Shown: piece by piece, positions 1,574 through 58,486 of the stretch | How positions within the stretch are numbered: the stretch's first letter is position 1 | How the letters are laid out: the number at the start of each line of letters is the position of its first letter | NCBI GenBank assembly: GCA_020631975.1 | Contig: JACKGO010000001.1 | Location: forward strand, 329,049-393,048 | Origin: Candidatus Nomurabacteria bacterium | GTDB taxonomy: Bacteria; Patescibacteriota; Saccharimonadia; Saccharimonadales; CAIOMD01 | DNA: 64,000 nucleotides | Reading direction: 5' to 3' | Notes under the pieces: model-generated | Seen by the model: the letters and a program-made list of their open reading frames with translations, nothing else | Told to the model about the DNA's origin: nothing | Database searches by the model: none | Translations under genes and position numbers: made by a program

Positions 1574-2386
1574 CTACCGTGTAGTTGTATGGCTATTGAT
1601 TATATGTGAGCGCTTCTTAGTATTATTTGTGCGCTTTTGCTGAAACGGACGTTGTTTTATATCTTTAGATGCTACTGTTTGATTCTTAGCCTTAATGGTT
1701 GGTTGAGAAACCTTTTTCGCAAATAGCATTTTTCCTGCTACGGTTTGATGCGATTTATTTATCGTTACCTGTATTGATTTACCAATGTCTTTAATTGCCC
1801 CATCAACAACGACCATAGTACCGTCGTCTAGGTAGCCGACCCCTTGATCACGGTTGGTACCAGATTGCAAAATTGTCACATGCGCAGTTTCTCCCGGCAA
1901 CGCTACTGGTCGGACAGCGTGGGCGAGCTCATTAACATTAAGCACGGTGACACCTTCTATGGTTGCTACCTGATTGAGATTGTAATCGGTGGTAAATAAC
2001 TCAGCAGATGTCAATTTGGCAAGTGCTACAAGGTTTTCATCAGTTGTTACCTTGCCCGGTTGTGTTTCGTCTATTGTGACGTCTAGCTCAGCGTCATTTT
2101 GTAATTGCTGCACGACATTCAAGCCAAAGCGAGCGCGCTCACGTTTATAGCTATCACGGCCGTCAGCCAATAATTGTAGTTCTTTAACAATAAATTGTGG
2201 AACAATGATTTTTTTAGGCATAAACCCTATTTTGGCGAGCTCAATGACCCTTCCATCTATCAGCGCACAGCTGTCCAAAATAACACTACTTGCACCACCA
2301 GTAGGTTGCGTGATTTTTTTACGTGGTTTTTTATATACTAAAACTACTATTAATAAGAGAAGTCCAATAATTATTATATCTGTCAT
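1574..2386 (-). CDS. PIN/TRAM domain-containing protein (YacL-like), N-terminal TM helix
   Basis: ILDSCALIDGR...ELQLLADGRD is PIN-like and the C-terminal region is TRAM-like. It is adjacent to radA, as yacL is in Firmicutes. Confidence 0.7.
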   Translation of the reverse strand: MTDIIIIGLLLLIVVLVYKKPRKKITQPTGGASSVILDSCALIDGRVIELAKIGFMPKKIIVPQFIVKELQLLADGRDSYKRERARFGLNVVQQLQNDAELDVTIDETQPGKVTTDENLVALAKLTSAELFTTDYNLNQVATIEGVTVLNVNELAHAVRPVALPGETAHVTILQSGTNRDQGVGYLDDGTMVVVDGAIKDIGKSIQVTINKSHQTVAGKMLFAKKVSQPTIKAKNQTVASKDIKQRPFQQKRTNNTKKRSHIINSHTTTR

Positions 2387-2388: not shown

Positions 2389-3756
2389 TTAGCCTTTCAT
2401 CAGCGTGTCGTTAAGGATTGTTTTTATGTTTTTTGCTTCTTTATATTGTAGACCAGAATTTGTTTGCGACTTTTGTAATCGTGGACCAATAACACTTGTG
2501 AAACCCATTTTTTGGGCCTCTTGAATGCGTTTTTCTAGCCATGGTACATGTCGCACCTCTCCACTTAAACCTACTTCGCCAAACACCACAGCATCTGTAC
2601 TTAGTTGCATGCCTTTCGCTGCTGAAGCAATCGCCATGCATATAGCCAAATCGGCAGCGTTTTCAGTTATTTTTATGCCTCCAACTATATTGATATAAAT
2701 GTCTTTGTCAGAAAGCTTCAGCTTGGTTCGGCGCTCAAGCATTGCAACAAGCAAATTAAGTCGGTTTAGATCAAACCCAGATGCTGCACGCTTAGGATAG
2801 CCGTAGCTTGTTGTATTAACGAGTGCTTGTACTTCTACTAGTATTGGCCTTGTGCCTTCTAGGGTTGCGAGCACGATAGAACCGTCACTGATTTGTCGCT
2901 CTGAAAGTAATGCTGCTGATGGATTTGTAACGACATGCAGACCCTTATCGGACATCTCTAGAATGACTGCTTCGTTTGTAGAGCCGAACCTATTTTTTAT
3001 GCCTCTTAAGACGCGAAATCCTGCATATCGGTCACCCTCTAGCTGCAATACGACATCCACTAAGTGTTCAAGAACTTTTGGGCCTGCGATAGAACCTTCT
3101 TTTGTAACGTGCCCCACCAAGATAACCGCAGTATTGGACTGTTTAGCTGCCAGCGTAATCAGTTGAGCACTGTTCGTAACTTGGCTGACTGAGCCGGGCA
3201 CACCAGTGATTTCATCTGTTGCTAATGTTTGCACTGAATCGACAATAACCACATTGTATTCACCAGAAACAATCGTAGTAGCAATGTCGTTTGCGCTGTT
3301 ACTGGTTGCTATAACTACGTTTTTATCTATTGCACTGCTAATACGCTTGCCTCTCATGGCGACTTGTTCTGCTGACTCTTCACCACTTACGTATAGAAGC
3401 GAGCTAGTCTGTGCAATTGCATACGCAAGTTGTAGTAGTAACGTGCTCTTTCCTATACCAGGTTGTCCAGCTAGCAGTGTCACGCTACCATGTACTAAAC
3501 CACCACCTAACACCTTGTCTACATCAGCCACACCAACAGGTATTCTGTCTGAATGGCTGACTGCGGTCTGCTCATTGATAGTTGTTGCTTTAAGCACGCT
3601 TCCGCTATGGACTGCTTGTTGGCCTTTTGTGCTGCCACGAACGTCTAGCACTTGCTGGATAGTGTTCCAGGCGCCACACGTAGCACACTTACCACTCCAG
3701 GATCCGTATGCTTCTCCACAATCACTGCAAACATATTTTGTCTTAGCCTTTGGCAT
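2389..3756 (-). CDS. radA: DNA repair protein RadA/Sms
   Basis: N-terminal zinc ribbon CSDCGE...CATCGAWNT, Walker A GQPGIGKST, Lon-like C-terminal domain, 455 aa. Confidence 0.95.
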   Translation of the reverse strand: MPKAKTKYVCSDCGEAYGSWSGKCATCGAWNTIQQVLDVRGSTKGQQAVHSGSVLKATTINEQTAVSHSDRIPVGVADVDKVLGGGLVHGSVTLLAGQPGIGKSTLLLQLAYAIAQTSSLLYVSGEESAEQVAMRGKRISSAIDKNVVIATSNSANDIATTIVSGEYNVVIVDSVQTLATDEITGVPGSVSQVTNSAQLITLAAKQSNTAVILVGHVTKEGSIAGPKVLEHLVDVVLQLEGDRYAGFRVLRGIKNRFGSTNEAVILEMSDKGLHVVTNPSAALLSERQISDGSIVLATLEGTRPILVEVQALVNTTSYGYPKRAASGFDLNRLNLLVAMLERRTKLKLSDKDIYINIVGGIKITENAADLAICMAIASAAKGMQLSTDAVVFGEVGLSGEVRHVPWLEKRIQEAQKMGFTSVIGPRLQKSQTNSGLQYKEAKNIKTILNDTLMKG

Positions 3757-3775: not shown

Positions 3776-4756
3776 TCATTCGTAGTATTGATATTTACTA
3801 TCGATACTATTTACCAGGTCTTGTTGCCTGTCTACTGTGCTATTGTACTCTTGAACCAGTTTATTATACTCTGCGATTAACTGTTTAAGACTGCTTATTT
3901 TTTGATTATATGCCTCAACTTGTTGATTGTAGCTAGGCACCAATGCGTTATATTCTGCGAATTTTTTTTGGGAACGGTATGCTTCTAGTTGGCGTTTTGT
4001 TTCTAGTAGCGCTGCTTCATCTTCACCTATTTGAGCTTCTTGCTGCGAGATTTCTGATTTACGTAAGGCTAAATCACCATTGATGCGCTGTGTGTCACTT
4101 TTTGCTGTATCAAACACAGCTTCGTAACTTTCTGAAAGTGCTACAACTTTCTGTCTATCAGAAAAATACGTACGATAATACTGCTCTAATTGTGGGTCTA
4201 GTGAGGCAACTTCTGTGCCTAAAATAGAATGCATCTCGTTTGGTACGACGGACGGGTCTTTATCTTGGTATCCTTTTATGAGCTGCAGTATTCTTGGATT
4301 GTTGATTTTCGTAACCATAGTCGCCGTCATTTCATCTACTTGTTGGCGCTGCTTGGGGCTTAGTCTGTCGTATGCAGCATGGAGCATTTCGTGCGAAGCA
4401 GTTACCTCTTTAATGCCTGCGAGCTCCGGTTTTTGCACATTATAAATGTATATATCGGTGTCTTTATTAAAATCAAATCCTGTATAGCACCCTAGTACAA
4501 TTGTTGCTTCGCTTGATGTACAAACGCTATTAAACTCAGCCTGCTCAGTTATTTTAGGCACATGTGAGTAAAATATCTCTGCGCCCGTTTCGTTCATGCC
4601 GCTATCTTTTGCTAATTGTACGATTTCTGGGCTAGGTGTGTAAGAACGGAGTACATACGCATCAAATATTGTAAACCGGTTAAACCACACAAACACAATA
4701 GACACTACCATAGCGATAAAAACTGTTGTCCATAGCCATTTAACTGTCCGTGTCAT
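3776..4756 (-). CDS. Hypothetical membrane-anchored protein with HEMLH (HExxH) motif and long C-terminal coiled coil
   Basis: 326-aa ORF with an N-terminal TM helix, the motif TASHEMLHAAY, and a Q/E/K-rich heptad-like C-terminus. I recognise no family. Confidence 0.6.
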   Translation of the reverse strand: MTRTVKWLWTTVFIAMVVSIVFVWFNRFTIFDAYVLRSYTPSPEIVQLAKDSGMNETGAEIFYSHVPKITEQAEFNSVCTSSEATIVLGCYTGFDFNKDTDIYIYNVQKPELAGIKEVTASHEMLHAAYDRLSPKQRQQVDEMTATMVTKINNPRILQLIKGYQDKDPSVVPNEMHSILGTEVASLDPQLEQYYRTYFSDRQKVVALSESYEAVFDTAKSDTQRINGDLALRKSEISQQEAQIGEDEAALLETKRQLEAYRSQKKFAEYNALVPSYNQQVEAYNQKISSLKQLIAEYNKLVQEYNSTVDRQQDLVNSIDSKYQYYE

Positions 4757-4777: not shown

Positions 4778-7249
4778 TTATTCGTGGATTACACTAAACG
4801 TAAGTAGTTTTTTATCTGTAGTAACAGTTATTACGTCACCTGCCGTAAAAGTTCCGTCTAATATATTATCCGCCACTGGATCTTCGATTTCATCTTGAAT
4901 GGCTCTGCGCATAGGGCGTACTCCGTTGTGTACATCGTAGCCTTTTTTTAGTAGCCAGTTTTTGGCAGCTGCGCTTAAGTGTATGCCAATTTTTTGGCGC
5001 TGCAAACGTTGGGCTAATTCATTAATTTGAACATCAATAATTTTACGCACAGCTTGTTTGTTGAGCGCTTTAAAGACGATTATTTTATCTATACGATTAA
5101 TAAGCTCTGGACGCATATGCTTTTTCAGTTCTTCTTTTACTTTTTCGCTATTTTCGGCATGGAGTTCATCGACAGATTTATCATTTGCCTTGCTGGCAAA
5201 GCCAAGGTTAACCTCTTTTTGCAACAACTTAGCACCAATATTACTCGTAAGCATGATAATCGTATTCCTAAAGCTCACCTTACGACCTTTTGCATCTGTG
5301 AGTTCGCCGTCTTCAAAAATCTGCAGAAGCATATTAAATACTTCAGGGTGCGCTTTTTCTATCTCATCAAATAACACAAGGCTATACGGTTGGCGACGAA
5401 TTTTATCAGTTAACTGACCACCTTCTTCGTACCCTACATAACCAGCTGGGGCGCCAACTAAACGTGCCACTGTGTGGCGCTCACCAAATTCACTCATATC
5501 AATTTTAATCAGTGCATCTTCTTTCCCAAAAAACTCTCGTGCCAGGACACGCGCAAGCTCAGTTTTCCCTACACCTGTTGGACCCATGCACATAAATGTA
5601 CCGATTGGTCTTTTTTCACTCCCTACACCAGAACGATTTCTTCGTATAGCCCGTGCAATAGCATTAATTGCCTCTTCTTGCCCAATTACATAGCGGCCGA
5701 GGTGTGATTCTAATTTTAGAAGATTTTTCGCCTCTTGACGCATGAGTTTTGTAAGCGGAATCGACGTTGCTTGATGTACTACCCTCGCAATGTCATCACC
5801 GCTAAGTTCTAGTCGCTTATGCTTGCCCAGCTTGCTTTTTAGTTCATCAAGACGTGCCTGTGCCGCACTAATACGTTGTTTATATTTTGCGGCTTTTTCG
5901 TAATCTTCTTGCTCTACTGCATCATCACGACGAACAGTAAATAAGCGTATTTCTTTTATAAGTTGACGATATTCTTTAGGTGTTTTGCCTTTATCTACGC
6001 GCAATAATGCGGCTGCTTCATCAAGCAAATCAATTGCCTTATCCGGCATATAGCGATCACTTATGTATCTATCGGCAAAATATACCGCGTCTTCTATCGT
6101 TGCATCAGAAATACGAACACCATGGTAATCTTCGTAGTGTTTTTTAAGCCCTTTTAAGATTGCGAGCGTTTCTGTGGTAGTGGTCGGTGGTATAACGACA
6201 GGTTGAAAACGTCGTTCGAGCGCAGCATCTTTTTCTATATGTTTATGATACTCGCTCGTCGTCGTGGCGCCGATGACTTGTATTTTGGCACGCGCAAGCG
6301 CAGGTTTAAGTATATTCCCTGCATCAATAGCTCCTTCTGCCGCCCCAGCGCCAACGAGAAGGTGCATCTCATCAATAAATATAATAATTTTTCTATCTGC
6401 CATTAGCTCGTCCATAACCTTTTTTAGGCGCTCTTCAAACTCACCACGGTATTTGGTACCGGCAATCATGGCAGCTAAGTCTAATACAACAATGCGTTTT
6501 TCTAGTAAGCTGTCAGGTACCTCTTCTGCAACAATTCTTTGAGCAAGGCCTTCTACGACGGCTGTTTTACCAACCCCAGGTTCTCCAATCAAAACAGGGT
6601 TATTTTTACTCCTGCGGTTTAATATCGTGATGGTACGTTTTATAGCGTCTTCTCTACCAACAACCGGATCTAGCTTATCTTCAGCTGCGAGAGCCGTCAG
6701 GTCACTCCCAAATACATCGAGAACACTTTTACCACCTTTGCGACGTGACTTAGTTGCCGTGCGTTTGCGAGATTGGTCTGAATCAAACTGCTGCTTCTGC
6801 AAAAAGTCATCAAAAGAATTCAACAATTTATCAGTATTGATATTCATATCTCTAAGCAGTACTGTCGCACGTGAATTTTTTTGTTGCAAAATACTAAACA
6901 CAATGTGCTCGGTCCCACACATGTCTTGGCCGTAATCTTGTGCGTAATCCCAGCTCACCTTGAGTGCTAATTTAGCGGTTTCGCTGAGACCTTTCGCACC
7001 AAGATTAATGACGAGATTTTTAGGAGTTAGGTTAAGGGCTAGCTGGGCTCTCTCATAGGAAACGCCTGCTGTGGTGAGTATTTTAGAAGCTACTGAATTG
7101 TCTTGAGCCAATACTCCCAGAAGTATGTGTTCAGTGCCGACATATGCCGAACCTTGCGTACGTGCAACATGATCAGCATGTTTTAGGCTCATAAGGGCAT
7201 TATCAGTCAGGTGGTTCAGAAATTCTTGCATATCTTGTGACTCATTCAT
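4778..7249 (-). CDS. clpC: ATP-dependent Clp protease ATP-binding subunit ClpC
   Basis: 823 aa with two Clp_N repeats, two AAA+ modules (GEPGVGKT, GPTGVGKT), a short UVR-like linker (EQEDYEKAAKYKQR) and an LGF loop. Confidence 0.92.
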   Translation of the reverse strand: MNESQDMQEFLNHLTDNALMSLKHADHVARTQGSAYVGTEHILLGVLAQDNSVASKILTTAGVSYERAQLALNLTPKNLVINLGAKGLSETAKLALKVSWDYAQDYGQDMCGTEHIVFSILQQKNSRATVLLRDMNINTDKLLNSFDDFLQKQQFDSDQSRKRTATKSRRKGGKSVLDVFGSDLTALAAEDKLDPVVGREDAIKRTITILNRRSKNNPVLIGEPGVGKTAVVEGLAQRIVAEEVPDSLLEKRIVVLDLAAMIAGTKYRGEFEERLKKVMDELMADRKIIIFIDEMHLLVGAGAAEGAIDAGNILKPALARAKIQVIGATTTSEYHKHIEKDAALERRFQPVVIPPTTTTETLAILKGLKKHYEDYHGVRISDATIEDAVYFADRYISDRYMPDKAIDLLDEAAALLRVDKGKTPKEYRQLIKEIRLFTVRRDDAVEQEDYEKAAKYKQRISAAQARLDELKSKLGKHKRLELSGDDIARVVHQATSIPLTKLMRQEAKNLLKLESHLGRYVIGQEEAINAIARAIRRNRSGVGSEKRPIGTFMCMGPTGVGKTELARVLAREFFGKEDALIKIDMSEFGERHTVARLVGAPAGYVGYEEGGQLTDKIRRQPYSLVLFDEIEKAHPEVFNMLLQIFEDGELTDAKGRKVSFRNTIIMLTSNIGAKLLQKEVNLGFASKANDKSVDELHAENSEKVKEELKKHMRPELINRIDKIIVFKALNKQAVRKIIDVQINELAQRLQRQKIGIHLSAAAKNWLLKKGYDVHNGVRPMRRAIQDEIEDPVADNILDGTFTAGDVITVTTDKKLLTFSVIHE

Positions 7250-7304
7250 GACAATACCCTTATTCTTTCTCTAGATATTAATAGTGTAGCAATCATACCA
7301 TTTA

Positions 7305-7333
7305 ATTATATGAAATTAGCACTCATTAATCAA
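7305..7333 (-). promoter_or_regulatory. Sigma-70-type promoter of clpC (-35 TTGATT, 17-nt spacer, -10 TATAAT)
   Basis: On the minus strand the -10 TATAAT is at 7310..7305 and the -35 TTGATT is at 7333..7328. The -10 lies about 55 nt upstream of the clpC ATG (7249). Confidence 0.65.
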
Positions 7334-7342
7334 GAGTGCTAA
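7316..7342. promoter_or_regulatory. CIRCE operator (HrcA binding site), perfect consensus TTAGCACTC-N9-GAGTGCTAA
   Basis: TTAGCACTC is at 7316-7324, the spacer attaatcaa at 7325-7333 and GAGTGCTAA at 7334-7342. The site overlaps the -35 and spacer of the clpC promoter. Confidence 0.9.
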
Positions 7343-7376
7343 TTACAATCTCGTATACGTCTAATACAGACCTCTT

Positions 7377-8540
7377 TTATTCGCCGTGTTCTTCGATTGC
7401 CTCAAGGAGACTAGACTCTAAATCACTTTTTTTCTTGAGTTTAGGAGCGTTAGAGGCTCCGACGACAGTGTCTTTCTTTTCTGGTACTTCAGCAGCTGCT
7501 GGCTTATCTCCTACAACATCAATATCATACCCAGTGAGCCTACTGGCAAGTCGTACGTTTTGGCCACTTCTGCCAATCGCTATCGATAGTTGGTCTTCTT
7601 CTACAGTTACTTTGGCCTTTTTCGCATTTTCGTTAAGTTCAACGCTTACGACTTTGGTTGGGCTAAGAGCATTAATAATGTACTCCTTGGTATCGCTTGC
7701 AAAAACTACGATATCAATTTTTTCTTGTTCACCAATTTCACTCATAACTGCTTGTACACGCGTCCCATGACCACCAACAAAAGTTCCCACTGGGTCAACA
7801 CCTGGCAAATTACTGGCAACGGCTATTTTAGTTCGTACACCTGCTTCGCGAGCTATGCCTTTAATTTCTACAGCGCCACCTTCCATTTCAGGTACTTCGT
7901 TCCGAAACAAATGTTCAATAAATTCAGGACAACCACGGCTTACTACCAGTTGGGCACCTTTAAAACCACGCTCAACGTCTTTTAGATACACCTTCAGACG
8001 TTGGCCCGGATGGTAACGCTCTCCTTGTATTTGTTCGCTCGGTGGTAAGATTCCCTGAGCACGATTAATCTCAATTCGAACCATCCGACCCTCAATGCGA
8101 GTTACGATAGCATTTAGAACGGTGTGGATTTTGTCTTCGAATTCAGCCAATACAACTTCTCGCTCGGCTTCACGTAATCGTTGTAGTATGACTTGTTTTG
8201 CCGTTTGGGCAGCCACCCGTCCAAAGTTTTCTACCTTTTCTTCTATCTCTACCGTTTCATCAAGAGCGACATCTTTACGAATTGCCTGTGCGTCTTTGAG
8301 TGAAATTTCTAAGTGCTCATTCGTTACATTATCTACTACAGTTTTTGTAATAAATACTGTTACGGAACCATCATTGATATTAATCACAGACCGCACTTCT
8401 TGGTCTTTGTCACCAAAATCTCGGCGCCATGCAGCTGCTAATGCTTGTTCTATAGCCTCTTGTACGACATCTTCTGGTAAGTTCTTTTCTTCGGCAATTG
8501 TTCGAACTGCCATCACTAATTGTTTTGTCTCGATATCCAT
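7377..8540 (-). CDS. nusA: Transcription termination/antitermination factor NusA
   Basis: S1 and KH domains are recognisable. I prefer the ATG at 8540 (SD AAGGGAG about 11 nt upstream) over the ORF-track TTG at 8579, which lies inside a hairpin. Confidence 0.9.
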   Translation of the reverse strand: MDIETKQLVMAVRTIAEEKNLPEDVVQEAIEQALAAAWRRDFGDKDQEVRSVININDGSVTVFITKTVVDNVTNEHLEISLKDAQAIRKDVALDETVEIEEKVENFGRVAAQTAKQVILQRLREAEREVVLAEFEDKIHTVLNAIVTRIEGRMVRIEINRAQGILPPSEQIQGERYHPGQRLKVYLKDVERGFKGAQLVVSRGCPEFIEHLFRNEVPEMEGGAVEIKGIAREAGVRTKIAVASNLPGVDPVGTFVGGHGTRVQAVMSEIGEQEKIDIVVFASDTKEYIINALSPTKVVSVELNENAKKAKVTVEEDQLSIAIGRSGQNVRLASRLTGYDIDVVGDKPAAAEVPEKKDTVVGASNAPKLKKKSDLESSLLEAIEEHGE

Positions 8541-8564
8541 TTTATTTCTACTCCCTTCTTCAGT

Positions 8565-8589
8565 AAAAAATCCGACCAATATGGTCGGA
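8565..8589 (-). terminator. Intrinsic-terminator-like hairpin plus U6 in the nusA 5' leader (candidate attenuator)
   Basis: The minus strand reads TCCGACC-ATATT-GGTCGGA (7-bp stem, 5 GC pairs) followed by TTTTTT. The T-tract ends 24 nt before the nusA ATG. Confidence 0.6.
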
Positions 8590-8659: not shown

Positions 8660-11173
8660 TTGACTGATGTAGCCCGACTATATCGTGAATTTACCCCAAC
8701 TCATTATGATGTTCATTTAACTCTAGATGCGACACTCCTAAGATTTAGTGGCACCGTTACCGTATTTGGTGATAGAAAAAAAAGTTCGCCCCATATACGG
8801 CTTCATGTGAAAGATTTGCAAATCATAGGTGTAACAGTTGATAGTACCGCCTGCGATTTTTCTATCAACGAAGACATTCTAGATATTCACATACCAAACA
8901 TTAAAAAAACAAGTATATCTGCGACAGTACATTTTAGCGGCACTATAACAAAAGCAATGCACGGTATTTACCCAGCATACACAAATGATGGTTCGGTTAT
9001 CCTCGGCACCCAGTTTGAAAGCCACCATGCACGTGAAGCGTTCCCTTGTATAGATGAACCAGAAGCTAAAGCTACGTTCGCATTACAAATAACGACACAT
9101 GAACCAATTGTGCTGAGTAATATGCCCCAGCAAACAAGTCATCAGAATACAGATGATTCAACAACCTTTATTTTTGAAACGACTCCAGTGATGAGTAGTT
9201 ACTTAGTTGCATTTGTGTGTGGTAATCTGCAGAAAGTTTCTACACAAACAGAAAACGGCACAGAAATTACAGTTTGGTCTAGTAAAGATCACGACATAGA
9301 ATCACTGGTCTTCCCACTAGAAGTAGCGGTAAAAACCACCGAGTTTTTTAATGAATATTTTGGGGTGGCATATCCGTTACCAAAATGTGATCATGTGGCG
9401 CTTCCGGATTTTAGTAGTGGCGCCATGGAAAATTGGGGTCTCATCACCTACCGTGAAATCGCCCTTATTGCTGACCCAGACACCATATCAACCTCAGCTA
9501 AAGAATATATAGCAACGGTGATTGCACATGAAATATCGCATCAGTGGTTTGGTAATCTCGTGACGATGCAGTGGTGGGATGATCTGTGGCTGAACGAAAG
9601 TTTTGCCACACTTATGGAGTACTTAGTGATAGACGCTATATACCCAGAGTGGAACGTTATGTTAAGCTTTGCTGCCCACGATGCTCTGAGCGCATTTAGA
9701 CGCGACGTATTGCCTGGTGTGCAACCAGTAGCCACACCTGTACACCACCCCGATGCAATTAGCACACTTTTTGACCCTTCTATCGTATATGCCAAGGGCG
9801 CACGATTGTTATATATGGCCTATCACGTTGTGGGCGATCGTAATTTTAAAAAAGGTCTACGAAACTATTTTAAACATCATGCCTACCAAAACACTGTTGG
9901 CGCAGACCTGTGGAATGCGCTCGGCGCTGCAAGTGGTATAGATGTTGCTTCCATTATGCACGGTTGGATTACCCAGTCAGGATTCCCGTACATAAAAATT
10001 ACACCGGTAGATGATACCACACTCAGTGTAGAACAACATCAGCTGACAACCACAATGCATACATCTGAAAAACTGTGGTCAATACCGCTATGGTCTTCAG
10101 ACAACTCAGCGCTCGATATTCTCGATACAAAACGCAAACTGGTGCATGTACAAAAACCACATACTCGGTTTAACATATACGGTGGACATTATGTGCCATA
10201 CTACACGTCTGATGCAACAAGATTGGCAATTTATGACGATGTCAAACATCATCGCATCTCACCAGATGCACGTTTATTGTTATTGCATGACCCACTACTA
10301 TTAGCCCGCTGTGGTGTTGGTTCACTTACAGATGCCTTGACTTCTCTGAGTTATTACGTAAACGAGACCGAACAGTCTGTGTGGAGTGTGATTAGTCTTG
10401 TTATCGGTGACACAAGACTCATGATAGAGGGTAACGAAACAGCAGAGTCGTCTCTAAAAAAACTTACATACCGTTTAATAGAGAAGCAGTATACTCGTTT
10501 AGGGCTCGTGTCTAAAGTAACCGATACCAATAATGACAAGAAACTTCGCAGCATTATTGCAGGCTTAGCTATATACTCAGAAGAACCTGATGTCATTAAA
10601 ACAGCAACGAAAATATTTAATGATTGCGATGATTTTGAAGCTCTACCAGTTGACACTCGATCAGCAATTCTAACAGCGGTTATTAAATCTGGTGACAAAG
10701 CGATGTTTGATTCATTCCTTACTGCCTACCCAGCAACTAAAAATGGTGATATACAACTTGATATTGCTGGTGCTCTATGTGCTACAAAAGATACCACTCG
10801 TATCAAAAAACTGATTAGCCGGCTTAAAGATCAGCAATTTGTTAGATTACAAGATCTTGATAGGTTTTTGGTATATCTTTTACGCAATCAGGCAAGCCGT
10901 GCCAGCGCATGGCAGTGGCTGGTTACCAACTGGCATTGGATTACAGAAGTATTCGCCCAAGATAAATCGTATGATAACTATCCACGTTACAGTGCTGCCG
11001 TCTTTTCTACACAAGAGTGGCTTAATACTTACGCTGAACACTTTACACCACTAGCGGATATCCCTTCATTGGCCCGTAATATAGATTTAGGCACCAAAGA
11101 TATTACTGCTAAAATAGAGTGGCGTCAGCGCGATCAAAAAGCAGTAGAGTCGTGGCTTTCTACAGCTCTATAA
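8660..11173 (+). CDS. pepN: Aminopeptidase N (M1 family metallopeptidase)
   Basis: GAMENWG exopeptidase motif and HEISHQWFGNLVT...WLNESFA zinc site. TTG start with SD AAAGGAG 6 nt upstream. Confidence 0.9.
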   Translation: MTDVARLYREFTPTHYDVHLTLDATLLRFSGTVTVFGDRKKSSPHIRLHVKDLQIIGVTVDSTACDFSINEDILDIHIPNIKKTSISATVHFSGTITKAMHGIYPAYTNDGSVILGTQFESHHAREAFPCIDEPEAKATFALQITTHEPIVLSNMPQQTSHQNTDDSTTFIFETTPVMSSYLVAFVCGNLQKVSTQTENGTEITVWSSKDHDIESLVFPLEVAVKTTEFFNEYFGVAYPLPKCDHVALPDFSSGAMENWGLITYREIALIADPDTISTSAKEYIATVIAHEISHQWFGNLVTMQWWDDLWLNESFATLMEYLVIDAIYPEWNVMLSFAAHDALSAFRRDVLPGVQPVATPVHHPDAISTLFDPSIVYAKGARLLYMAYHVVGDRNFKKGLRNYFKHHAYQNTVGADLWNALGAASGIDVASIMHGWITQSGFPYIKITPVDDTTLSVEQHQLTTTMHTSEKLWSIPLWSSDNSALDILDTKRKLVHVQKPHTRFNIYGGHYVPYYTSDATRLAIYDDVKHHRISPDARLLLLHDPLLLARCGVGSLTDALTSLSYYVNETEQSVWSVISLVIGDTRLMIEGNETAESSLKKLTYRLIEKQYTRLGLVSKVTDTNNDKKLRSIIAGLAIYSEEPDVIKTATKIFNDCDDFEALPVDTRSAILTAVIKSGDKAMFDSFLTAYPATKNGDIQLDIAGALCATKDTTRIKKLISRLKDQQFVRLQDLDRFLVYLLRNQASRASAWQWLVTNWHWITEVFAQDKSYDNYPRYSAAVFSTQEWLNTYAEHFTPLADIPSLARNIDLGTKDITAKIEWRQRDQKAVESWLSTAL

Positions 11174-12699: not shown

Positions 12700-13833
12700 A
12701 TGAACATATACGAAGAAGCACTCCGTGCGCATAAAAAAGCTCGTGGCAAACTCGCCATTGTATCTAAAGTACCATTAAAGTCACGGCACGATTTAAGCAT
12801 TTATTACAGCCCAGGTGTCGCTGCTGTTTCTGAAAGGTTAGCGAAGCATCCTTCAGAAACCCCACTGTATACCAATACTCATAACTCGGTCGCGGTCGTG
12901 TCAGATGGCACAAGTGTACTAGGACTTGGCAACATAGGACCCGAGGGTGCCCTGCCCGTTATGGAAGGAAAAGCTATCTTGTTTAAGCATTATGCAGGTA
13001 TCGATGCCATACCTATCGTGCTAAACACGCAAGACCCAGACGCAATTATAGAAACAGTCGTTGCCATAGCGCCAAGCTTTGGTGGTATAAATTTAGAAGA
13101 TATTGCTGCTCCACAGTGTTTTTATATAGAAGATGAACTTAAAAAGCGTCTTTCGATACCCATTATGCACGATGATCAACACGGTACTGCTGTAGTTGTG
13201 TTAGCTGGGCTCATTAATGCGACACGCTATGTTAAGAAAGACCTTAGTGCTTGTAAGGTTGTTCTTGTTGGTGCTGGAGCGGCTGGAATCGCTATTGCTA
13301 AACTGCTCACACAATACGCTCAACCAACAATTGTAGCGGTAGATAGCAAAGGAGTTATAACTACTTCTAGGTCAGACTTAACTCCAGAAAAACAGATGCT
13401 AGCACAATTATCTAAAAATGATGGATCTACTAGTTTAGAACAAGCTATTAAAGGCAGTGATATATTTATTGGCGTTTCACGCAGTGGTTTGTTAACTGAA
13501 GCTATGGTGCGTACTATGGCAGAGAATCCTATTATATTTGCACTTGCCAACCCAGAGCCAGAAATTTTACCTACTGTGGCAAAAGCCGCTGGAGCGGCTG
13601 TCGTGGCAACTGGGCGAAGCGACTACCCAAATCAAGTCAATAATGTCTTGGCATTTCCTGGCTTGTTCAGGGGAGCGTTAGACACACATAGTGCTATTAC
13701 AGATGCACATAAAATGGCGGCGGCCGAAGCATTAGCTGCACTGGTGACTCACCCTACTGCAGATGCCATTATTCCTAGCCCATTTGATCGCCATGTCGCC
13801 GATAATGTAGCGGCAGTATTTAAAAAGCGCTAG
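12700..13833 (+). CDS. NAD(P)-dependent malic enzyme (short, ~377 aa type)
   Basis: Malic-enzyme N-terminal and NAD-binding domains (VVSDGTSVLGLGNIGP, GAGAAGIA). I prefer the ATG at 12700 to the ORF-track start at 12679. Confidence 0.85.
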   Translation: MNIYEEALRAHKKARGKLAIVSKVPLKSRHDLSIYYSPGVAAVSERLAKHPSETPLYTNTHNSVAVVSDGTSVLGLGNIGPEGALPVMEGKAILFKHYAGIDAIPIVLNTQDPDAIIETVVAIAPSFGGINLEDIAAPQCFYIEDELKKRLSIPIMHDDQHGTAVVVLAGLINATRYVKKDLSACKVVLVGAGAAGIAIAKLLTQYAQPTIVAVDSKGVITTSRSDLTPEKQMLAQLSKNDGSTSLEQAIKGSDIFIGVSRSGLLTEAMVRTMAENPIIFALANPEPEILPTVAKAAGAAVVATGRSDYPNQVNNVLAFPGLFRGALDTHSAITDAHKMAAAEALAALVTHPTADAIIPSPFDRHVADNVAAVFKKR

Positions 13834-15434
13834 ACAAGTACGCGACTGATTTCTTCTATTGTAGTTTCGCCTGCAAGCGCTCGCAACACGCCCTCTTGTA
13901 GCATGGTGGTCATACCATCTTGGATAGCTACTTGCTGAATACTACGCTCTGTAATTTCTCTAATAGGCTTTTTTAGTTCAGCTTCGACTGTTGGGGTCAT
14001 GAGCAACAACTCTCTCACTGCAAATTGGCCGCTATACCCAAAAGGAGATGTAGCGCTTGGTACTGCTTTATATAGTTGCACATTGTCTAGATTTGGTTTT
14101 TCTATTCTAGTTGGTAATGTGTCAATAATTTTTTTCAACCATGCAATCGTAGACGCATCAGGTGTATATGGCTGTTTTGTTGTGTCGTCTAAGCGACGTA
14201 TGAGTCGTTGGGCCATAATTACTCGTATGGCAGAGGCAAATAGTGGGTTTTCTGAAATAGCGTCTAGCATGCGAGTAAGCGAGGCTGCAGCCGAACCAGC
14301 ATGGTAGGTAGAAAGCACTAAATGACCCGTTAAGGCCGATTGTAAAGCGGTTTTTGCTGTGTCATTATCACGAATTTCTCCAACCATAACAACATCTGGG
14401 TCGAGCCGTAGCACCGCCCGGAACTTTTCAGCAAAACCTGTTTTAACCTGCCGAGAATCAACCGGTATCTGGGTTACCCCTTTGATATTGTATTCAACTG
14501 GGTCTTCGAGTGTTATTAATTTCCGTTCAGTACTATTGAGTTCATTTAGAATGCTATACAACGTAGTAGTTTTACCTGAACCGGTTGGACCAACAATCAG
14601 TACAAGGCCATTAGGATGGCTAATTACTTCTTTGACTATATGTAGCTCGTCTGGTTGAAGGTTCAATTTATGCAATTGCATAAGGTCTGTATTTAACGTG
14701 AACAACCGCAGAACTGCGTCCATACCATGTACAGTCGGTACCGTTTCTACACGCAGGTTTACTTCTACATTAGAACCATCGGCAAGCATATAATTCTTAT
14801 TTATGTGTCCAGTTTGAGCATCTGCCGAACTGGTAGATATGTTTGCTGCTACAGCGAGACTTGATACTAATTGCCGATATTTTTCTATACTGAGCAAGGC
14901 AATTGGGTGCAACACGCCATCAACCCTAAACCGGATACGAACTTCATTTCGATCTGTCTCTAGATGTATATCAGACGCGTGAAGCTGATATGCTTGCTTT
15001 ACAACGTATGCGAGCATATCATCTGCCCGCACCGAGCCGAGTGTATGGGAAATTGTAGCTACTTGCTCAGTATTTGTAGTATTACCAATATTAATATCAT
15101 CGTAAATAACTTGTTTGGGTGGGTCGTATTTTCGTAATAAATCACGATACCCACTGTCAGAAATTAAGTAAAACTCTATTCTTTGGTCTAGATGATCTTG
15201 GCGCAGTTTTTGCAAAATAGCTTGAGGTGTCGTATTGGTAATACCAAAACGCATCGTATTCGCGTCTACATACAAGGGTACGAATTTATGTTTTTTTATG
15301 TCTTCTATACTGACTGCTTCTTTATAAATTGCAATATCTACATTTGAAGTATCAAAATATGGGACCCCAACGATATGTGCTTGGCGCTGTGCAGTCTGTT
15401 CGTCTAGACGTCTTGCTTGGTTTTCGTCTTGCAT
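13830..15434 (-). CDS. Type II/IV secretion-system ATPase (GspE/PilB family)
   Basis: Walker A GPTGSGKTTT plus Asp and His boxes. ATG at 15434 preferred (ORF-track TTG 15452). No other pilus genes are in the window. Confidence 0.85.
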   Translation of the reverse strand: MQDENQARRLDEQTAQRQAHIVGVPYFDTSNVDIAIYKEAVSIEDIKKHKFVPLYVDANTMRFGITNTTPQAILQKLRQDHLDQRIEFYLISDSGYRDLLRKYDPPKQVIYDDINIGNTTNTEQVATISHTLGSVRADDMLAYVVKQAYQLHASDIHLETDRNEVRIRFRVDGVLHPIALLSIEKYRQLVSSLAVAANISTSSADAQTGHINKNYMLADGSNVEVNLRVETVPTVHGMDAVLRLFTLNTDLMQLHKLNLQPDELHIVKEVISHPNGLVLIVGPTGSGKTTTLYSILNELNSTERKLITLEDPVEYNIKGVTQIPVDSRQVKTGFAEKFRAVLRLDPDVVMVGEIRDNDTAKTALQSALTGHLVLSTYHAGSAAASLTRMLDAISENPLFASAIRVIMAQRLIRRLDDTTKQPYTPDASTIAWLKKIIDTLPTRIEKPNLDNVQLYKAVPSATSPFGYSGQFAVRELLLMTPTVEAELKKPIREITERSIQQVAIQDGMTTMLQEGVLRALAGETTIEEISRVLV

Positions 15435-15496
15435 ACCCTTACATAGTAGCAAGCATAAGGAGTATAGGCTATATATAATTTGTTACTATAGAATAC

Positions 15497-15994
15497 ATGA
15501 TCCCTATTGCCCTTATATTGGATAATATTCGGAGTACCTACAATGTTGGGAGCATACTCCGTACAGCCGATTGCTTTGGCGTACAAGAAATCTTCTTTAG
15601 CGGCTATACTCCGTATCCTATCAGTAAGGCAGACCGGCGCATGCCTCATATAGCTAAAAAACTTCATGAGCAAATTGCAAAAACAGCACTCGGGGCTGAA
15701 TCTACACTGCCTTTTAGCGTATTTGATACGATAGCAACAGCCATCGACGCAGCCCAATCAGCCGGGTATAAGATTATTGGTATAGAACAAGATACAAACA
15801 GTATACCGTTAGATTCGTACAGCTTCACCCAGCCAAGTGCTCTTATCCTTGGGAATGAGCTTGATGGTGTTAATACATGGACGAAATCTCGCTGTGATGT
15901 CATACTAGAGATTGAGCAGTACGGTACAAAAGAATCACTTAACGTCGCAAACGCAGCCGCAATCGCACTGTATACGACACGAACAAAAACATAA
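15497..15994 (+). CDS. TrmH/SpoU-family RNA 2'-O-methyltransferase
   Basis: SpoU motifs NVGSILRTA, LILGNELDG and ESLNVANAAAIALY. Confidence 0.8.
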   Translation: MIPIALILDNIRSTYNVGSILRTADCFGVQEIFFSGYTPYPISKADRRMPHIAKKLHEQIAKTALGAESTLPFSVFDTIATAIDAAQSAGYKIIGIEQDTNSIPLDSYSFTQPSALILGNELDGVNTWTKSRCDVILEIEQYGTKESLNVANAAAIALYTTRTKT

Positions 15995-50915: not shown

Positions 50916-53426
50916 CTATATACGTTTCGCGTTATACGCCTTGGCGACTTCTGACGTCGCTTTTTCTACTAAGCTAGTAAGTTCTTGGGTAGTCATAGTG
51001 CGCTCATGATTGCTCATACTAAGCCGGAACGTGTAGTTAATGTGACTATCTGTTTTATAACTATCTATGGCAATAAGTGAATAAATTGATTTTTCTGGAA
51101 TATGCTGGGCAATTGCTTTCTGAAGCGAAGTAGAAATCGTGGCAAAGAGCATACTACTATCTACCTGTAGGGTAATATCTTGGTTTATAGAGGGGTATTT
51201 TGGTAGCTGCACATACCGTTTAGGAGTGCCTAGCGAGTGTTGTAAAAGAGGCACAATATTCAGTTCAAAACCTGCACAATAGCTTGGGAGTTTAAGCTTT
51301 TTCATTGTTTTGGCTTGTAATTCACCTACTACACCCAATGTTTCGCCGTCATCAGTCGCAATGACTGCACTACGCGTTGCTAGGAAAGGTTGCGACATAT
51401 CATTAGCTGGCTGGTTTGGCACGTCTGTAAAAGGAGTAAATGTAGCTTTAATGCCGAGTTTTTGTAACACACCATTAAGATACTCTTTTGCATAGTAATA
51501 TGGTTCGCCTTCGTAGTTTTTACGTTTCTTTTCGTCAGCCGCAAATACAAAAGCGAGGTTTTCATGTTCTATTGGTAAACCATCTTCTGCCACATACTGC
51601 TTAGAATGGGCTTTACCTATTTCAAATAAAGCAAATTCACCATAACCAGCTTTTATGTTTAGGTGAACCTTTTCTAGCACACTTGGTAAAACGCTCAGGC
51701 GATAGTACTGCAAGCGGGGGCTTAGGGCATTACTTAGTTTGTACGCATTACTTATGTCTTGATTAGACGCTTCTATGAGATCGCTATGCACAAACGTATA
51801 GGTAAGAAGTTCATTTGCACCCATGGCTGCCAAGGTGTGCCGTAGAGTTTCTTTAAAGTGTATTGAAGTATTCTTTTTGGCAGGTTTAGCAATGCGGGTT
51901 GGCAAGGCAATAGGTAACTTTTCATAACCATAGAGCCTGCCGACTTCTTCTACAATGTCTTCTTGTAAACGAATATCCCGGCGCCAAAATGGTACATGTA
52001 TGGTAATTGCATCGCTATGAACATCTACCTTACATTCTACGTTCTCTAATAATTGTGCGATTTGCTGGGCGCTTAGTTGTGAGCCTAAGCGAGTGTTTAT
52101 AAACTCTGCAGTAGTGCTGACGGGAGCCAATGGCACTACGGTGTCATCTTTATAGTCAACTACCGAACTAGCCAGTTGACCCCCTGCAATGCTTTGGACC
52201 ATTTCTGTTGCTTTGTGTAATACTCGCAGATTTTGCAAAGGGCTTTGCCCTTTGTTAAAGCGTGTTACGGCGTCTGTGAATAAACCATATTTCATGGCTG
52301 TACGCCGTATGTTGTACATATCAAAATTAGCACATTCAAGAACGATGTTTTTGGTCGTTTTGTCTACTTCTGTTTCGCTCCCACCCATAACACCACCTAT
52401 ACCAATTGGTGTATCATCAGCGCAGATAATTACCGTAGCATCATCTTGCATCATCACATCTTTACCGTTTAATAGTGCAATTGATTCTCCCTTTTTAGAT
52501 AGGCGCGCTCTAATGACGGCTTTTTTGGTGCCACTCTTTGCAATCAGTTTATCGTAATCGTATGCGTGTAAGGGCTGCCCCGTTAAGTGCATCAACCAAT
52601 TAGTAATGTCTACAATATTATTAATTGGTCGCAAGCCCACCCTACTTAGATCGGACTGCATCTGCAAGGGGCTAGCAGCCACCTGCACGTTTTTTAAGAC
52701 TATCGCACTAAAGCGTGGCACCAGTGGTGTGTCTACTGCAACTTGTAGTGGTAGATCTGTAATATTATTGAAAGTAGGATCCTGGCTATACCACTGTGGG
52801 CTTATAAAAGCTTTCTGCTGAATACCGGCAAGTTCACGCGCAACACCAAGCACACCAAAACAATCAGGTCGGTGTGTAAACATTTTATTTTCGCAATCTA
52901 CAACATCATCATCTAAGTTATATAAGCTTACAAAAGGGGTACCAGCTGGGACGTCTTCTGTAATTACTAATATACCGTCATGATCGTCACTTAGCGCAAG
53001 CTCAGCAGGACTGGCGATCATACCATTGCTACGTAGACCACGTAGTTCACGTGCACCAAGTACAAATGGTTCTTTGTCGTCGGCGGTGCTCGGTACAATT
53101 ACCCCTGGGGGTAGCCACACGACGGTTTGGCCAGTGGCTATGTTTGGGGCTCCACACACGACCTGTATACGTCCGTCTTGGTCACGCTCGATATCTTTTA
53201 TGCTATTGCCGTCATCCACCAAGCAAACACTTAGCTTATCGGCGTTGGGGTGTTTAACGCAGCTCACCACCTTAACAACTACTACACCTTGGTATTTTTT
53301 ACCCCACTCTATAACGTCTTCTACTGCACCAAGTTGTGCACCTATTTTTTTAACGACTTCATCTGTTCCAATGCTGGTGATGTCTACGTTGCTGACTGAT
53401 TGCGCCCATTTTAAACTAACATTCAT
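50916..53426 (-). CDS. pheT: Phenylalanine--tRNA ligase beta subunit
   Basis: 836 aa with an N-terminal tRNA-binding OB domain and B3/4, B5 and FDX-ACB-like regions. 1-nt gap after pheS. Confidence 0.93.
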   Translation of the reverse strand: MNVSLKWAQSVSNVDITSIGTDEVVKKIGAQLGAVEDVIEWGKKYQGVVVVKVVSCVKHPNADKLSVCLVDDGNSIKDIERDQDGRIQVVCGAPNIATGQTVVWLPPGVIVPSTADDKEPFVLGARELRGLRSNGMIASPAELALSDDHDGILVITEDVPAGTPFVSLYNLDDDVVDCENKMFTHRPDCFGVLGVARELAGIQQKAFISPQWYSQDPTFNNITDLPLQVAVDTPLVPRFSAIVLKNVQVAASPLQMQSDLSRVGLRPINNIVDITNWLMHLTGQPLHAYDYDKLIAKSGTKKAVIRARLSKKGESIALLNGKDVMMQDDATVIICADDTPIGIGGVMGGSETEVDKTTKNIVLECANFDMYNIRRTAMKYGLFTDAVTRFNKGQSPLQNLRVLHKATEMVQSIAGGQLASSVVDYKDDTVVPLAPVSTTAEFINTRLGSQLSAQQIAQLLENVECKVDVHSDAITIHVPFWRRDIRLQEDIVEEVGRLYGYEKLPIALPTRIAKPAKKNTSIHFKETLRHTLAAMGANELLTYTFVHSDLIEASNQDISNAYKLSNALSPRLQYYRLSVLPSVLEKVHLNIKAGYGEFALFEIGKAHSKQYVAEDGLPIEHENLAFVFAADEKKRKNYEGEPYYYAKEYLNGVLQKLGIKATFTPFTDVPNQPANDMSQPFLATRSAVIATDDGETLGVVGELQAKTMKKLKLPSYCAGFELNIVPLLQHSLGTPKRYVQLPKYPSINQDITLQVDSSMLFATISTSLQKAIAQHIPEKSIYSLIAIDSYKTDSHINYTFRLSMSNHERTMTTQELTSLVEKATSEVAKAYNAKRI

Positions 53427-53427
53427 A

Positions 53428-54447
53428 TTAAAACTGCCTCAAAAAATCTAATTTACCGCTTAAAAAATGCCTGATATCTTCAACTTCATATTTCATCATA
53501 ACCAAACGTTCTACGCCCCCGCCCCATGCAAAACCCGTATATTCATTAGAGTCTATGCCCGCCATTTTAAGCACATTAGGATGTATCATACCGCAACCAA
53601 GTAATTCCAACCACATGTCTGCCTCTGTATTTCCTTTCCTTAATGTTTTTGGCCTCTCTATAGCAAACTCAAAACTAGGTTCGGTAAACGGAAAGTAAAA
53701 AGGTTGGATTTTTGCTTTTAAGTCTTGGCCATAATACTCACTCATAAATGCCCGCAATATAGCGATTAGGTTACCTACATTTATGCCTTTATCTACATAG
53801 ATGCCTTCTAGCTGATAGAATGCATGTTCATGTGTGGCGTCTAAGTCTTCGTTTCTAAATACTCTATCTGGGATTACAACAGCGATTGGTTCGCCGTTCA
53901 TTAAATTATTTTTGTATTGTATAAGCGCCCTATTTTGCATGGTGCTCGTATGTGCTGGCGCAATAAGACCTTCTGTGGTCATAAAGGTGTCGTAATCGTC
54001 GCGGGCTGGGTGGCCTTCTGGAAAATTAAGACTTTCAAACATATGGTAGTCATCATCAACTTGGCGCGATTCCATAGCAGTAAAACCCATCCGGTAAAAA
54101 ATATCTAAGATATATGTAATTTCTGACATCAAAGGATGCTCACTCCCTACACTAGAAGTAAACGTCTGTGGTCTTTTTGTGGTATTGGGTGCAAACGGCG
54201 CAGTGACGTCAATTGGTTGACGGTTGTCTTGTACTGCTTCTGTAGAAAACCACGATGTAACTTCCTTTTTTAGTGCATTTACTTCTGCGCCAAATAAAGG
54301 TTTTTGCTGACTATTTTTGTTTGGCAATTCTGCATAGAGCTGCTTAAACACAGGGCTGCGCACTATAGCTGTTTTATCACTGAGCTGGTTAAATTCTTGC
54401 TGCAATTTAGCTTTTGCAGACTGTACTTCTTGGAATGTATACGACAT
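53428..54447 (-). CDS. pheS: Phenylalanine--tRNA ligase alpha subunit
   Basis: Class II aaRS motifs (FRNEDLDATHEHAFYQLEG, GFAWGGGVERL); 339 aa. Confidence 0.95.
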   Translation of the reverse strand: MSYTFQEVQSAKAKLQQEFNQLSDKTAIVRSPVFKQLYAELPNKNSQQKPLFGAEVNALKKEVTSWFSTEAVQDNRQPIDVTAPFAPNTTKRPQTFTSSVGSEHPLMSEITYILDIFYRMGFTAMESRQVDDDYHMFESLNFPEGHPARDDYDTFMTTEGLIAPAHTSTMQNRALIQYKNNLMNGEPIAVVIPDRVFRNEDLDATHEHAFYQLEGIYVDKGINVGNLIAILRAFMSEYYGQDLKAKIQPFYFPFTEPSFEFAIERPKTLRKGNTEADMWLELLGCGMIHPNVLKMAGIDSNEYTGFAWGGGVERLVMMKYEVEDIRHFLSGKLDFLRQF

Positions 54448-54486
54448 ATGGCTTTCATTATACTACGTGTACAGATAGACATGCTA

Positions 54487-54514
54487 TTGACATTTTTAGC
54501 GAGACATATATATT
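54487..54514 (+). promoter_or_regulatory. Promoter (-35 TTGACA, 16 nt, -10 TATATT) placed 9 nt upstream of the 54524 ATG (leaderless configuration)
   Basis: TTGACA is at 54487-92 and TATATT at 54509-14. There is no SD before the ATG. Confidence 0.55.
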
Positions 54515-54523
54515 CAAATTACC

Positions 54524-54733
54524 ATGTCCAACCAAAAGCCACGTATTGGCGATCGGGTGTCTGCCAGCCATGCAGCTGGTAACGAGTTCTGCGCAAATGC
54601 CACATGTCGCACGTACGAAGGGTTCATAACAGATATTGTGCAAGATATCATAACAATATATGATGGACAGCACCATGTGCGGATAAAAAATACCGGTGCG
54701 TGGGTCTTAGAAATATACGATGAAGTAACATAA
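54524..54733 (+). CDS. Small hypothetical protein, 69 aa
   Basis: The ORF has a consensus -35 promoter directly upstream and is followed 17 nt later by yajQ. I recognise no family. Confidence 0.5.
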   Translation: MSNQKPRIGDRVSASHAAGNEFCANATCRTYEGFITDIVQDIITIYDGQHHVRIKNTGAWVLEIYDEVT

Positions 54734-54750
54734 AACGAAAGAAATGTACT

Positions 54751-55248
54751 ATGGCACTATTTAGTTTTGACCTTGAAAGTGAATACGATAAATCAGAAAT
54801 GAACAATGTCGTAGACCAAGCCCAGCGCGAGATTGCAAATAGGTATGATTTTAAAAATACCACTGCGCAGTTAAGCTGGAAAAACGATGATAAACAGGCA
54901 CTACTTATTAATGGTGATACCCAATTTCAGCTCGATGCAATTATAGAAATTATCCGTAAAAAACTTGCCCTTCGAGGTCAAAGCCAAAAATGTTTAGATG
55001 TAAGTGCTGAACCAACCACCAATAATTTGCGAATGAGTCTAACGGTGCCCTTGGTACGTGGTCTAGACCAAGCCAAAGCTAAAGCTATCACTTCACTCGT
55101 GAGAGAGCATTATCCAAAAGTAAAAACCCAGATACAGGGCGAAACAGTTCGTATTATGAGTGCAAAAAAAGATGAACTCCAAAACGTGATAACGCTATTA
55201 AAAACCCACGAATTTGATTTTCCGATTATATTTACCAATTATCGATAA
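54751..55248 (+). CDS. YajQ-family (UPF0234) nucleotide-binding protein
   Basis: SFDLESEYDKSEMNNVVDQAQREIANRYDFKNT matches the N-terminus of the YajQ family; 165 aa. Confidence 0.85.
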   Translation: MALFSFDLESEYDKSEMNNVVDQAQREIANRYDFKNTTAQLSWKNDDKQALLINGDTQFQLDAIIEIIRKKLALRGQSQKCLDVSAEPTTNNLRMSLTVPLVRGLDQAKAKAITSLVREHYPKVKTQIQGETVRIMSAKKDELQNVITLLKTHEFDFPIIFTNYR

Positions 55249-55268
55249 TAGAACTATACTAATAGTAT

Positions 55269-56579: not shown

Positions 56580-56599
56580 ACGCTACTAAATAGGCTAAG

Positions 56600-57670: not shown

Positions 57671-57759
57671 GTAAAACCTGCGTATAAAGTGCTGTTATCT
57701 ATTATCAATCTGTGCGCGCTTATGGTCATACCTTCTATGGTACATGCAATGCACCCATT

Positions 57760-57787
57760 AAAAAAGCCGGGATGTTTCACCCGGCTT
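57760..57787 (-). terminator. Rho-independent terminator downstream of the hdeD-like gene
   Basis: The minus strand reads AAGCCGGG-TGAAACAT-CCCGGCTT followed by TTTTTT. Confidence 0.7.
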
Positions 57788-58437: not shown

Positions 58438-58486
58438 AGAGATCCTCCTTAAAGTTAGTACCTTTATACTAGCATACTTTTCATTA

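Follow-up and report, generated by a model that had tools for sequence, protein, structure and literature searches.

A perfect inverted repeat of the CIRCE type stands directly in front of clpC in a bacterium of the order Saccharimonadales, and this raises the question of which regulator governs the gene in this lineage. The repeat could be a binding site for the repressor HrcA, but it could also be a hairpin in the transcript of the preceding gene nusA, a site for some other regulator, or an accident of sequence. The window examined here is the whole stretch of 64,000 nt that was analysed. Judged from sequence and its conservation, we put the probability at about 85% that the palindrome is a functional CIRCE, bound by an HrcA dimer and controlling a sigma-70-type promoter of the clpC operon. 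Saccharibacteria as a group very probably place clpC under HrcA and not under the CtsR system of Firmicutes, as comparison of the loci below suggests.

The operator and predicted promoter of clpC

The elements upstream of clpC are the following.

7316-7342, no strand assigned: CIRCE operator, a 9-bp inverted repeat with a 9-nt loop, identified by its consensus match and conserved arms
7342-7334, read on the minus strand: left arm of CIRCE, TTAGCACTC
7333-7325, read on the minus strand: loop of CIRCE, TTGATTAAT
7324-7316, read on the minus strand: right arm of CIRCE, GAGTGCTAA
7328-7333, minus strand: predicted -35 hexamer TTGATT, within the CIRCE loop (promoter scan)
7305-7310, minus strand: predicted -10 hexamer TATAAT (promoter scan)
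7292-7300, minus strand: possible second, extended -10, TGGTATGAT (direct reading of the sequence)

Compared with the CIRCE consensus as quoted in the literature, TTAGCACTC-N9-GAGTGCTAA (PMC3842655), the sequence at 7316-7342, which reads TTAGCACTCATTAATCAAGAGTGCTAA, matches at 18 of 18 positions and has a spacing of exactly 9 nt. It is the sole site in the window, no other match being found in the 64 kb even with 3 mismatches allowed. The number of perfect CIRCE sequences expected by chance in a window of this length, calculated from base composition, is 9.7e-7.

An independent consensus promoter scan returned TTGATT-17-TATAAT on the minus strand, with 10 of 12 matches. The -35 hexamer of this predicted clpC promoter lies in the loop of the repeat and the right arm fills the spacer between the -35 and the -10, leaving a gap of 5 nt (TTTCA on the minus strand) between the arm and TATAAT. 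The ATG of clpC (7249) follows 55 nt after TATAAT, with a Shine-Dalgarno-like TAAGGGT in between, and 66 nt downstream of the operator. The first-pass annotation had described a match to all 18 consensus positions at 7305-7342, overlapping the spacer and, through its loop, the -35 of a promoter about 55 nt upstream of clpC. Each of these statements agrees with the scans, and the coordinates correctly span the operator plus the -10. The possible second -10 is missing from the aligned relatives. Because the operator precedes the predicted start of transcription, it would act as a DNA element and not as an mRNA element for the predicted promoter. A terminator scan of 6900-7700 found no intrinsic terminator between nusA and the operator.

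ClpC and its neighbouring genes

The genes next to the operator are all on the same strand.

7377-8579, minus strand: nusA, upstream and co-directional (NCBIfam TIGR01953 at 1e-109)
4778-7249, minus strand: clpC, encoding an 823-aa class I Hsp100/Clp ATPase, the first gene past the operator (NCBIfam and structure matches)
3776-4756, minus strand: conserved hypothetical protein of 326 aa with an HExxH motif, 21 nt past clpC
2389-3756, minus strand: radA/sms, 19 nt past the 326-aa gene (Pfam Zn-ribbon, KaiC/AAA_25 and ChlI/Lon_C)
1574-2386, minus strand: PIN/TRAM protein, YacL-like, 2 nt past radA (Pfam TRAM at 1.5e-7 and PIN_9 at 6.7e-4)

The 823-aa product scores against all Clp/Hsp100 models of NCBIfam. 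Its best matches among solved structures are ClpC of S. aureus (6em8), ClpC of B. subtilis (3j3s) and ClpC1 of M. tuberculosis (8a8u). The alignments with these structures run through residues 12-820 in a single stretch, against ClpC chains of 810-856 aa. ClpB structures match the protein only as two separate stretches, as is expected from a short middle domain of the ClpC type. The architecture found is that of ClpC, with a Clp_N domain, two AAA+ modules, a short middle domain and no long ClpB M-domain. Furthermore, LGF in the segment QKEVNLGFASK is aligned with AGF in QDQRFAGFGGS of S. aureus ClpC; we take this segment to be the ClpP-docking loop of D2, which is not found in ClpB. The earlier naming of the gene as clpC is thus supported by a full-length match to three ClpC structures together with LGF at the position of the docking loop. 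Homologs of the protein carry the label ClpC at JGI, and identical copies of it occur on metagenome contigs of up to 75 kb. At NCBI, homologs with 67-78% identity bear the names Candidatus Saccharimonadales, Saccharibacteria or Patescibacteria, which places the window in a Saccharibacterium (TM7, CPR).

The GTEH(I/L) motif is kept in both Clp_N repeats, at protein positions 45-47 and 113-115. In B. subtilis ClpC this motif presumably helps to form the pockets for phospho-arginine, and it is retained here although the gene tables of ML1 (Southlakia epibionticum, a cultured Saccharibacterium) annotate no McsB arginine kinase. The peptidase gene clpP is not in the 64-kb window; it is present in ML1 (SEML1_0493, PMC10633639 supplement) and, according to published work, in TM7x (TM7x_02110).

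The gaps between clpC, the HExxH gene, radA and the PIN/TRAM gene are so short that the four, with the PIN/TRAM gene as the last, are probably co-transcribed as an operon. The synteny with radA is conserved in the relatives. At the other end of the window the G+C content drops to 0.36 (60001-64000) against 0.41-0.43 in the remaining window; this low-G+C region holds two ORFs without a Pfam match (59615-60916 and 62900-63577), a DsbB-like gene and a gene for an AI-2E transporter.

The 326-aa protein is a member of a large family found only in Saccharibacteria and Patescibacteria; its more than 1200 homologs are all about 320 aa long. The family has no consistent assignment in Pfam, and the member in the window has no significant Pfam match. 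The HExxH motif is invariant (H122, E123 and H126), as are E174, H176 and E182. The protein starts with a hydrophobic helix, and its AlphaFold2 model (pLDDT 92.5) shows a globular domain followed by a long antiparallel coiled-coil hairpin at 201-318. A fold search of the PDB gave nothing significant, the hits being coiled-coil noise and anthrax lethal factor at E = 0.32. The gene occupies the same position in all relatives, and the ortholog in the ML1 study is given as zincin-like (PMC10633639). The protein may be a membrane-anchored metallopeptidase or a partner of ClpC, and its place behind clpC marks it as a likely member of the heat-shock regulon.

Conservation of the operator across Saccharibacteria

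The footprint for clpC was made from the window and the loci L046, L047, L048, L030, L049, L050, L032, L062 and L061, the last of which was reached via the 326-aa neighbour protein. ClpC of the nine relatives is about 65-87% identical to ClpC of the window, so that all ten cover a range of 65-100%. The footprint for hsp20 consists of L051, which is from the same genome as the window, and L058, L059 and L060. With up to 2 mismatches allowed, 14 CIRCE sites are present in the 326 kb of DNA from these 14 Saccharibacterial loci. They are found upstream of clpC in 10 of 10 loci and upstream of hsp20 in 4 of 4, and none occurs elsewhere in the 326 kb. The association of CIRCE with clpC, first proposed from the window, is therefore kept in all nine relatives examined. 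Their sites have 0-2 mismatches, five of the nine being perfect, and are located 51-88 nt before the clpC start. This range leaves out L049, where the called start lies 16 nt past the start of CIRCE (10001) and is for that reason probably about 10 codons too early. In the same locus both radA and the TRAM gene are fragmented (13528-15750), which suggests frameshifts or assembly errors.

In an operator-anchored comparison the information content of the two arms is 1.86 and 1.84 bits per position, against 0.34 (30-nt) and 0.38 (45-nt) bits per position in the flanks. A MAFFT alignment confines the invariant columns to the arms and the first three bases of the loop, TTG. The loop starts with TTG at 13 of the 14 Saccharibacterial sites (as TTGACN, TTGCAT or TTGATT), and nearly all sites have a -10-like hexamer 5-9 nt past the right arm, at most of them 5-6 nt. 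Together these two features indicate that the position of the -35 within the loop belongs to a design that has been conserved. The -35 of L061 (TTGACg) is shifted to the end of the loop, still inside the operator, and both arms are perfect, so the arms are conserved in their own right and not because they form promoter hexamers.

These data bear on the notion that the palindrome is due to chance or is a by-product of promoter sequence. Some conservation would be expected anyway, since loop and spacer carry promoter elements. However, the conserved bases are those of the arms and not of the promoter hexamers, also where the register of the -35 has changed (L061), the chance expectation is about 1e-6 per window, and all 14 sites precede just two heat-shock gene families. 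There is next to no likelihood left for this notion, and the conservation data effectively refute a chance origin of the CIRCE match.

The gene upstream of clpC is nusA in most relatives. The operator stays with clpC in L048, where the upstream gene differs. In L046 an extra ORF of 139 aa without a Pfam match (9490-9909) is inserted between nusA and clpC, and CIRCE is found after this ORF, directly before clpC. Outside Saccharibacteria, no CIRCE with up to 3 mismatches was detected in 31 loci that encode Clp homologs and come from Ruminococcus, Treponema and members of other phyla. These negative-control loci stem from contig searches with ClpC, which yielded mostly distant Clp homologs of 43-47% identity; two loci from these searches, L030 and L032, proved useful for the footprint instead.

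A symmetric variant of the operator, TTGGCACTC...GAGTGCCAA, carries a change at position 3 of each arm, which leaves the palindrome intact. It occurs at the clpC site of L030 (5843-5869) and at the hsp20 site of L060 (9915-9941), with partial versions in L032, L058, L049 and L062. The variant may reflect a lineage-specific specificity of HrcA or simply a tolerated position.

A second operator upstream of hsp20

The first-pass annotation had proposed a search for further CIRCE copies in the genome. The flanks of the window were walked for about 8 kb to the left (L019) and 8.6 kb to the right, the latter through L051, which overlaps the window at 52126-64000 with 4 mismatches in 11,875 nt. A second perfect CIRCE of the same design was found there, at L051 816-842, equivalent to window positions 71734-71760 and thus 7.7 kb past the end of the window. 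The site reads TTAGCACTC TTGACAGCA GAGTGCTAA TTTTTG TATACT, again with the -35 within the loop, and it ends 92 nt before a gene for an Hsp20/alpha-crystallin protein (L051 935-1360). Orthologs of this hsp20 in L058, L059 and L060 (72-88% identity) have the same arrangement of CIRCE.

Scanning IMG/VR for a TTG-loop version of the operator yielded 5 contigs, none of them Saccharibacterial. In three of the IMG/VR sequences, L053, L054 and L055, which are near-identical and have a GC content of about 47-48%, a TTG-loop CIRCE lies about 130 nt before the start of an Hsp20-like ORF.

The hsp20 sites are of importance for a different interpretation, in which the inverted repeat acts mainly as RNA, i.e. 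as a hairpin that forms an intrinsic terminator or attenuator of the nusA transcript and is not a protein operator. Such a hairpin, of 9-10 bp, would fold at -20 kcal/mol (z = -2.7), the end of nusA is 34 nt upstream of the repeat with no other terminator predicted, and in L046, L047 and L030 the right arm is followed by 4-6 consecutive T. Yet the hairpin is not called by the terminator scan, and the T-run is missing at 6 of the 10 clpC sites (L048, L050, L032, L049, L061 and L062). The arms are kept in sequence, not merely in pairing or covariation, and their sequence is that of the HrcA consensus. The CIRCE site has no match among the families of Rfam. Moreover, the same element precedes hsp20 in L051 and L059, where the upstream gene is divergent so that there is nothing to terminate. 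We regard a terminator or attenuator as very unlikely, and the reading of the repeat as an HrcA operator is the one pursued below.

The presumed repressor

A site for HrcA requires a repressor, and candidates were sought both in the DNA at hand and in published gene tables. None of hrcA, grpE, dnaK, groEL and ctsR is present among the approximately 55 genes of the window, as searched with Pfam and NCBIfam, or in about 18 kb of flanks. The cultured ML1, in contrast, has an HrcA, SEML1_0720, assigned to K03705 and carrying PF01628 and PF03444 (PMC10633639 supplement). It is encoded by 729 bp, has 242 aa, is annotated as 'transcriptional regulator' and has ECOD matches to two domains of T. maritima HrcA (1stz); a winged helix and a sensor domain are listed, whereas the inserted dimerising domain is not (PMC10633639 supplement). 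The gene lies directly upstream of grpE and dnaK, in the order hrcA-grpE-dnaK, and was scored essential in Tn-seq (PMC10633639 supplement). Its essentiality may stem from a polar effect on grpE-dnaK or from toxic derepression.

The ML1 genome also has the gene order of the window, nusA, Clp ATPase, hypothetical protein and radA; the Clp ATPase gene is 2472 bp long and non-essential (PMC10633639 supplement). The tables further include groES-groEL and hsp20, but neither CtsR (K03708/PF05848) nor McsB ('arginine kinase') nor RpoH (K03089) (PMC10633639 supplement). The phylum thus has HrcA and, by annotation, is without CtsR and RpoH. A weak hint of a shared regulon comes from expression tables of TM7x, in which radA and the gene for a Clp ATPase, two locus tags from it, shift the same way as groES, groEL, dnaK, dnaJ and grpE (PMC10768705 supplement). 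The supplement of one paper on Saccharimonadia metabolism contains no KO entries for hrcA, clpC or groEL, and full-text literature on HrcA in combination with Saccharibacteria, Patescibacteria, candidate phyla radiation, TM7x or Nanosynbacter gave nothing relevant.

The sequence around the clpC promoter points in the same direction. No CtsR-type repeat had been seen there in the first inspection, and with up to 3 mismatches allowed the CtsR-box-like repeat RGTCAAANANRGTCAAA is indeed not found in 7250-7400. Matches elsewhere in the window are at chance level, with 11 found and 7.6 expected. The clpC promoter is thus without the tandem heptad box of the CtsR (class III) regulon, (A/G)GTCAAANAN(A/G)GTCAAA. 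The genes ctsR-mcsA-mcsB are not present upstream of clpC, where nusA is found instead.

One may still ask whether the operator is real but bound by a regulator other than HrcA, or whether it is a relic that remained after loss of hrcA from this genome. Such a scenario would be compatible with the lack of hrcA in the window and in about 18 kb of flanks, and with the atypically short length (242 aa) of the ML1 protein, the sole Saccharibacterial HrcA considered. To our knowledge, however, HrcA is the only protein that binds CIRCE. The protein of ML1 has both HrcA Pfam domains and its gene adjoins grpE-dnaK, and a relic would not stay at 16-18 of 18 positions while ClpC diverges to 65% identity and the flanks are randomised. 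We consider this scenario improbable and HrcA the most plausible ligand of the site.

Proposed mechanism

In view of the above, a mechanism can be proposed in which an HrcA dimer would bind both arms of CIRCE and thereby cover the -35 and the spacer. With the -35 in the loop and the right arm in the spacer, bound HrcA would keep RNA polymerase off the promoter by occlusion. In the Bacillus model of Mogk and colleagues from 1997, the activity of HrcA is said to be controlled by titration of GroEL. Such titration has been shown for Bacillus and was invoked for M. pneumoniae (PMC7737663). If it also operates in Saccharibacteria, accumulation of unfolded proteins, for instance upon heat, would titrate GroEL/ES away, HrcA would lose activity and the promoter would open. 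The resulting derepression would raise expression of clpC and, through the short gaps, probably also that of the HExxH gene, radA and the PIN/TRAM gene. Since no terminator is predicted after nusA, read-through may add to clpC expression. On transcripts that enter from upstream, bound HrcA would be at most a roadblock.

A more far-reaching proposal is that an HrcA of about 240 aa, with the inserted dimerising domain not listed, is the only dedicated proteostasis regulator in Saccharibacteria. The regulon would then have been rebuilt around promoters with the -35 in the CIRCE loop, i.e. those of the clpC operon and hsp20, and the essentiality of hrcA in Southlakia would be due to toxic derepression, for example by unrestrained ClpC, and not to polarity on grpE-dnaK. 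We find this extension doubtful.

If the basic mechanism is right, it offers an initial and testable view of how stress genes are regulated in Saccharibacteria, a lineage within the CPR for which transcriptional control has hardly been described. The compact design with the operator inside the promoter, of which 14 natural variants are at hand, could also provide a stress-responsive or repressible promoter for Saccharibacteria, which have recently become genetically tractable.

Comparison with known systems

The arrangement described here shares with classic CIRCE/HrcA systems the operator sequence, the sigma-70-type promoter of a proteostasis gene and, presumably, HrcA and GroEL titration. 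It differs in its targets, which are groE and dnaK in the classic systems and the clpC operon and hsp20 in the Saccharibacterial loci, and in its host, a CPR bacterium. It also differs in layout. In B. subtilis, CIRCE is located at the transcription start or downstream of it and has an additional effect on the stability of the mRNA, whereas the Saccharibacterial element covers the -35 and the spacer and thus would not be transcribed from the predicted promoter. The operator itself is textbook CIRCE; what is unusual is that it serves clpC and hsp20, that it is laid out around the -35, and that it occurs in this phylum.

With respect to gene content, the closest comparison is with the class III operon of B. 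subtilis, which has the order ctsR-mcsA-mcsB-clpC-radA-disA-yacL and is controlled by CtsR. The order clpC, radA, PIN/TRAM (yacL-like) is common to both, and ClpC is an ortholog-grade match. The window differs by having no ctsR, mcsA, mcsB or CtsR box, by the presence of nusA upstream and by control through CIRCE, and an unrelated HExxH/coiled-coil gene is located between clpC and radA. The clpC-radA-PIN/TRAM cluster looks ancient, to judge from these sequences, and seems to have been kept under different regulators, CIRCE here and CtsR in Firmicutes.

That CIRCE can serve genes of small heat-shock proteins, and can occur in one promoter together with a different stress operator, is known from hsp1 of Lactobacillus plantarum, a small heat-shock gene under dual control by CtsR and HrcA (PMC3842655). 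In contrast to hsp1, the Saccharibacterial CIRCE stands alone, without a second operator.

Mycoplasmas offer a further parallel. The first-pass annotation had mentioned HrcA/CIRCE control of Clp and Lon genes in these organisms, and the published Mycoplasma regulon does include clpB and lon, as well as pepA and pip, in addition to dnaK, dnaJ and groESL (PMC7737663). As in Saccharibacteria the host is genome-reduced, and HrcA/CIRCE appears to be the chief regulator of heat-shock genes there, with an Hsp100 ATPase and proteases among its targets (PMC7737663). The targets differ in kind: in mycoplasmas they are Lon and the disaggregase ClpB, which does not dock to ClpP, whereas the unrelated phylum studied here has as its target an unfoldase of the ClpC type that carries an LGF loop. 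By analogy, it looks as if the HrcA regulon was consolidated independently in mycoplasmas and in Saccharibacteria, and the parallel with the enlarged mycoplasma regulon suggests convergence of reduced genomes on one repressor. To a specialist in heat-shock regulation, the link between CIRCE and clpC will appear solid and useful yet unsurprising. In function it comes nearest to the HrcA regulon of mycoplasmas, and in genomic context to the clpC operon of Firmicutes, which CtsR controls.
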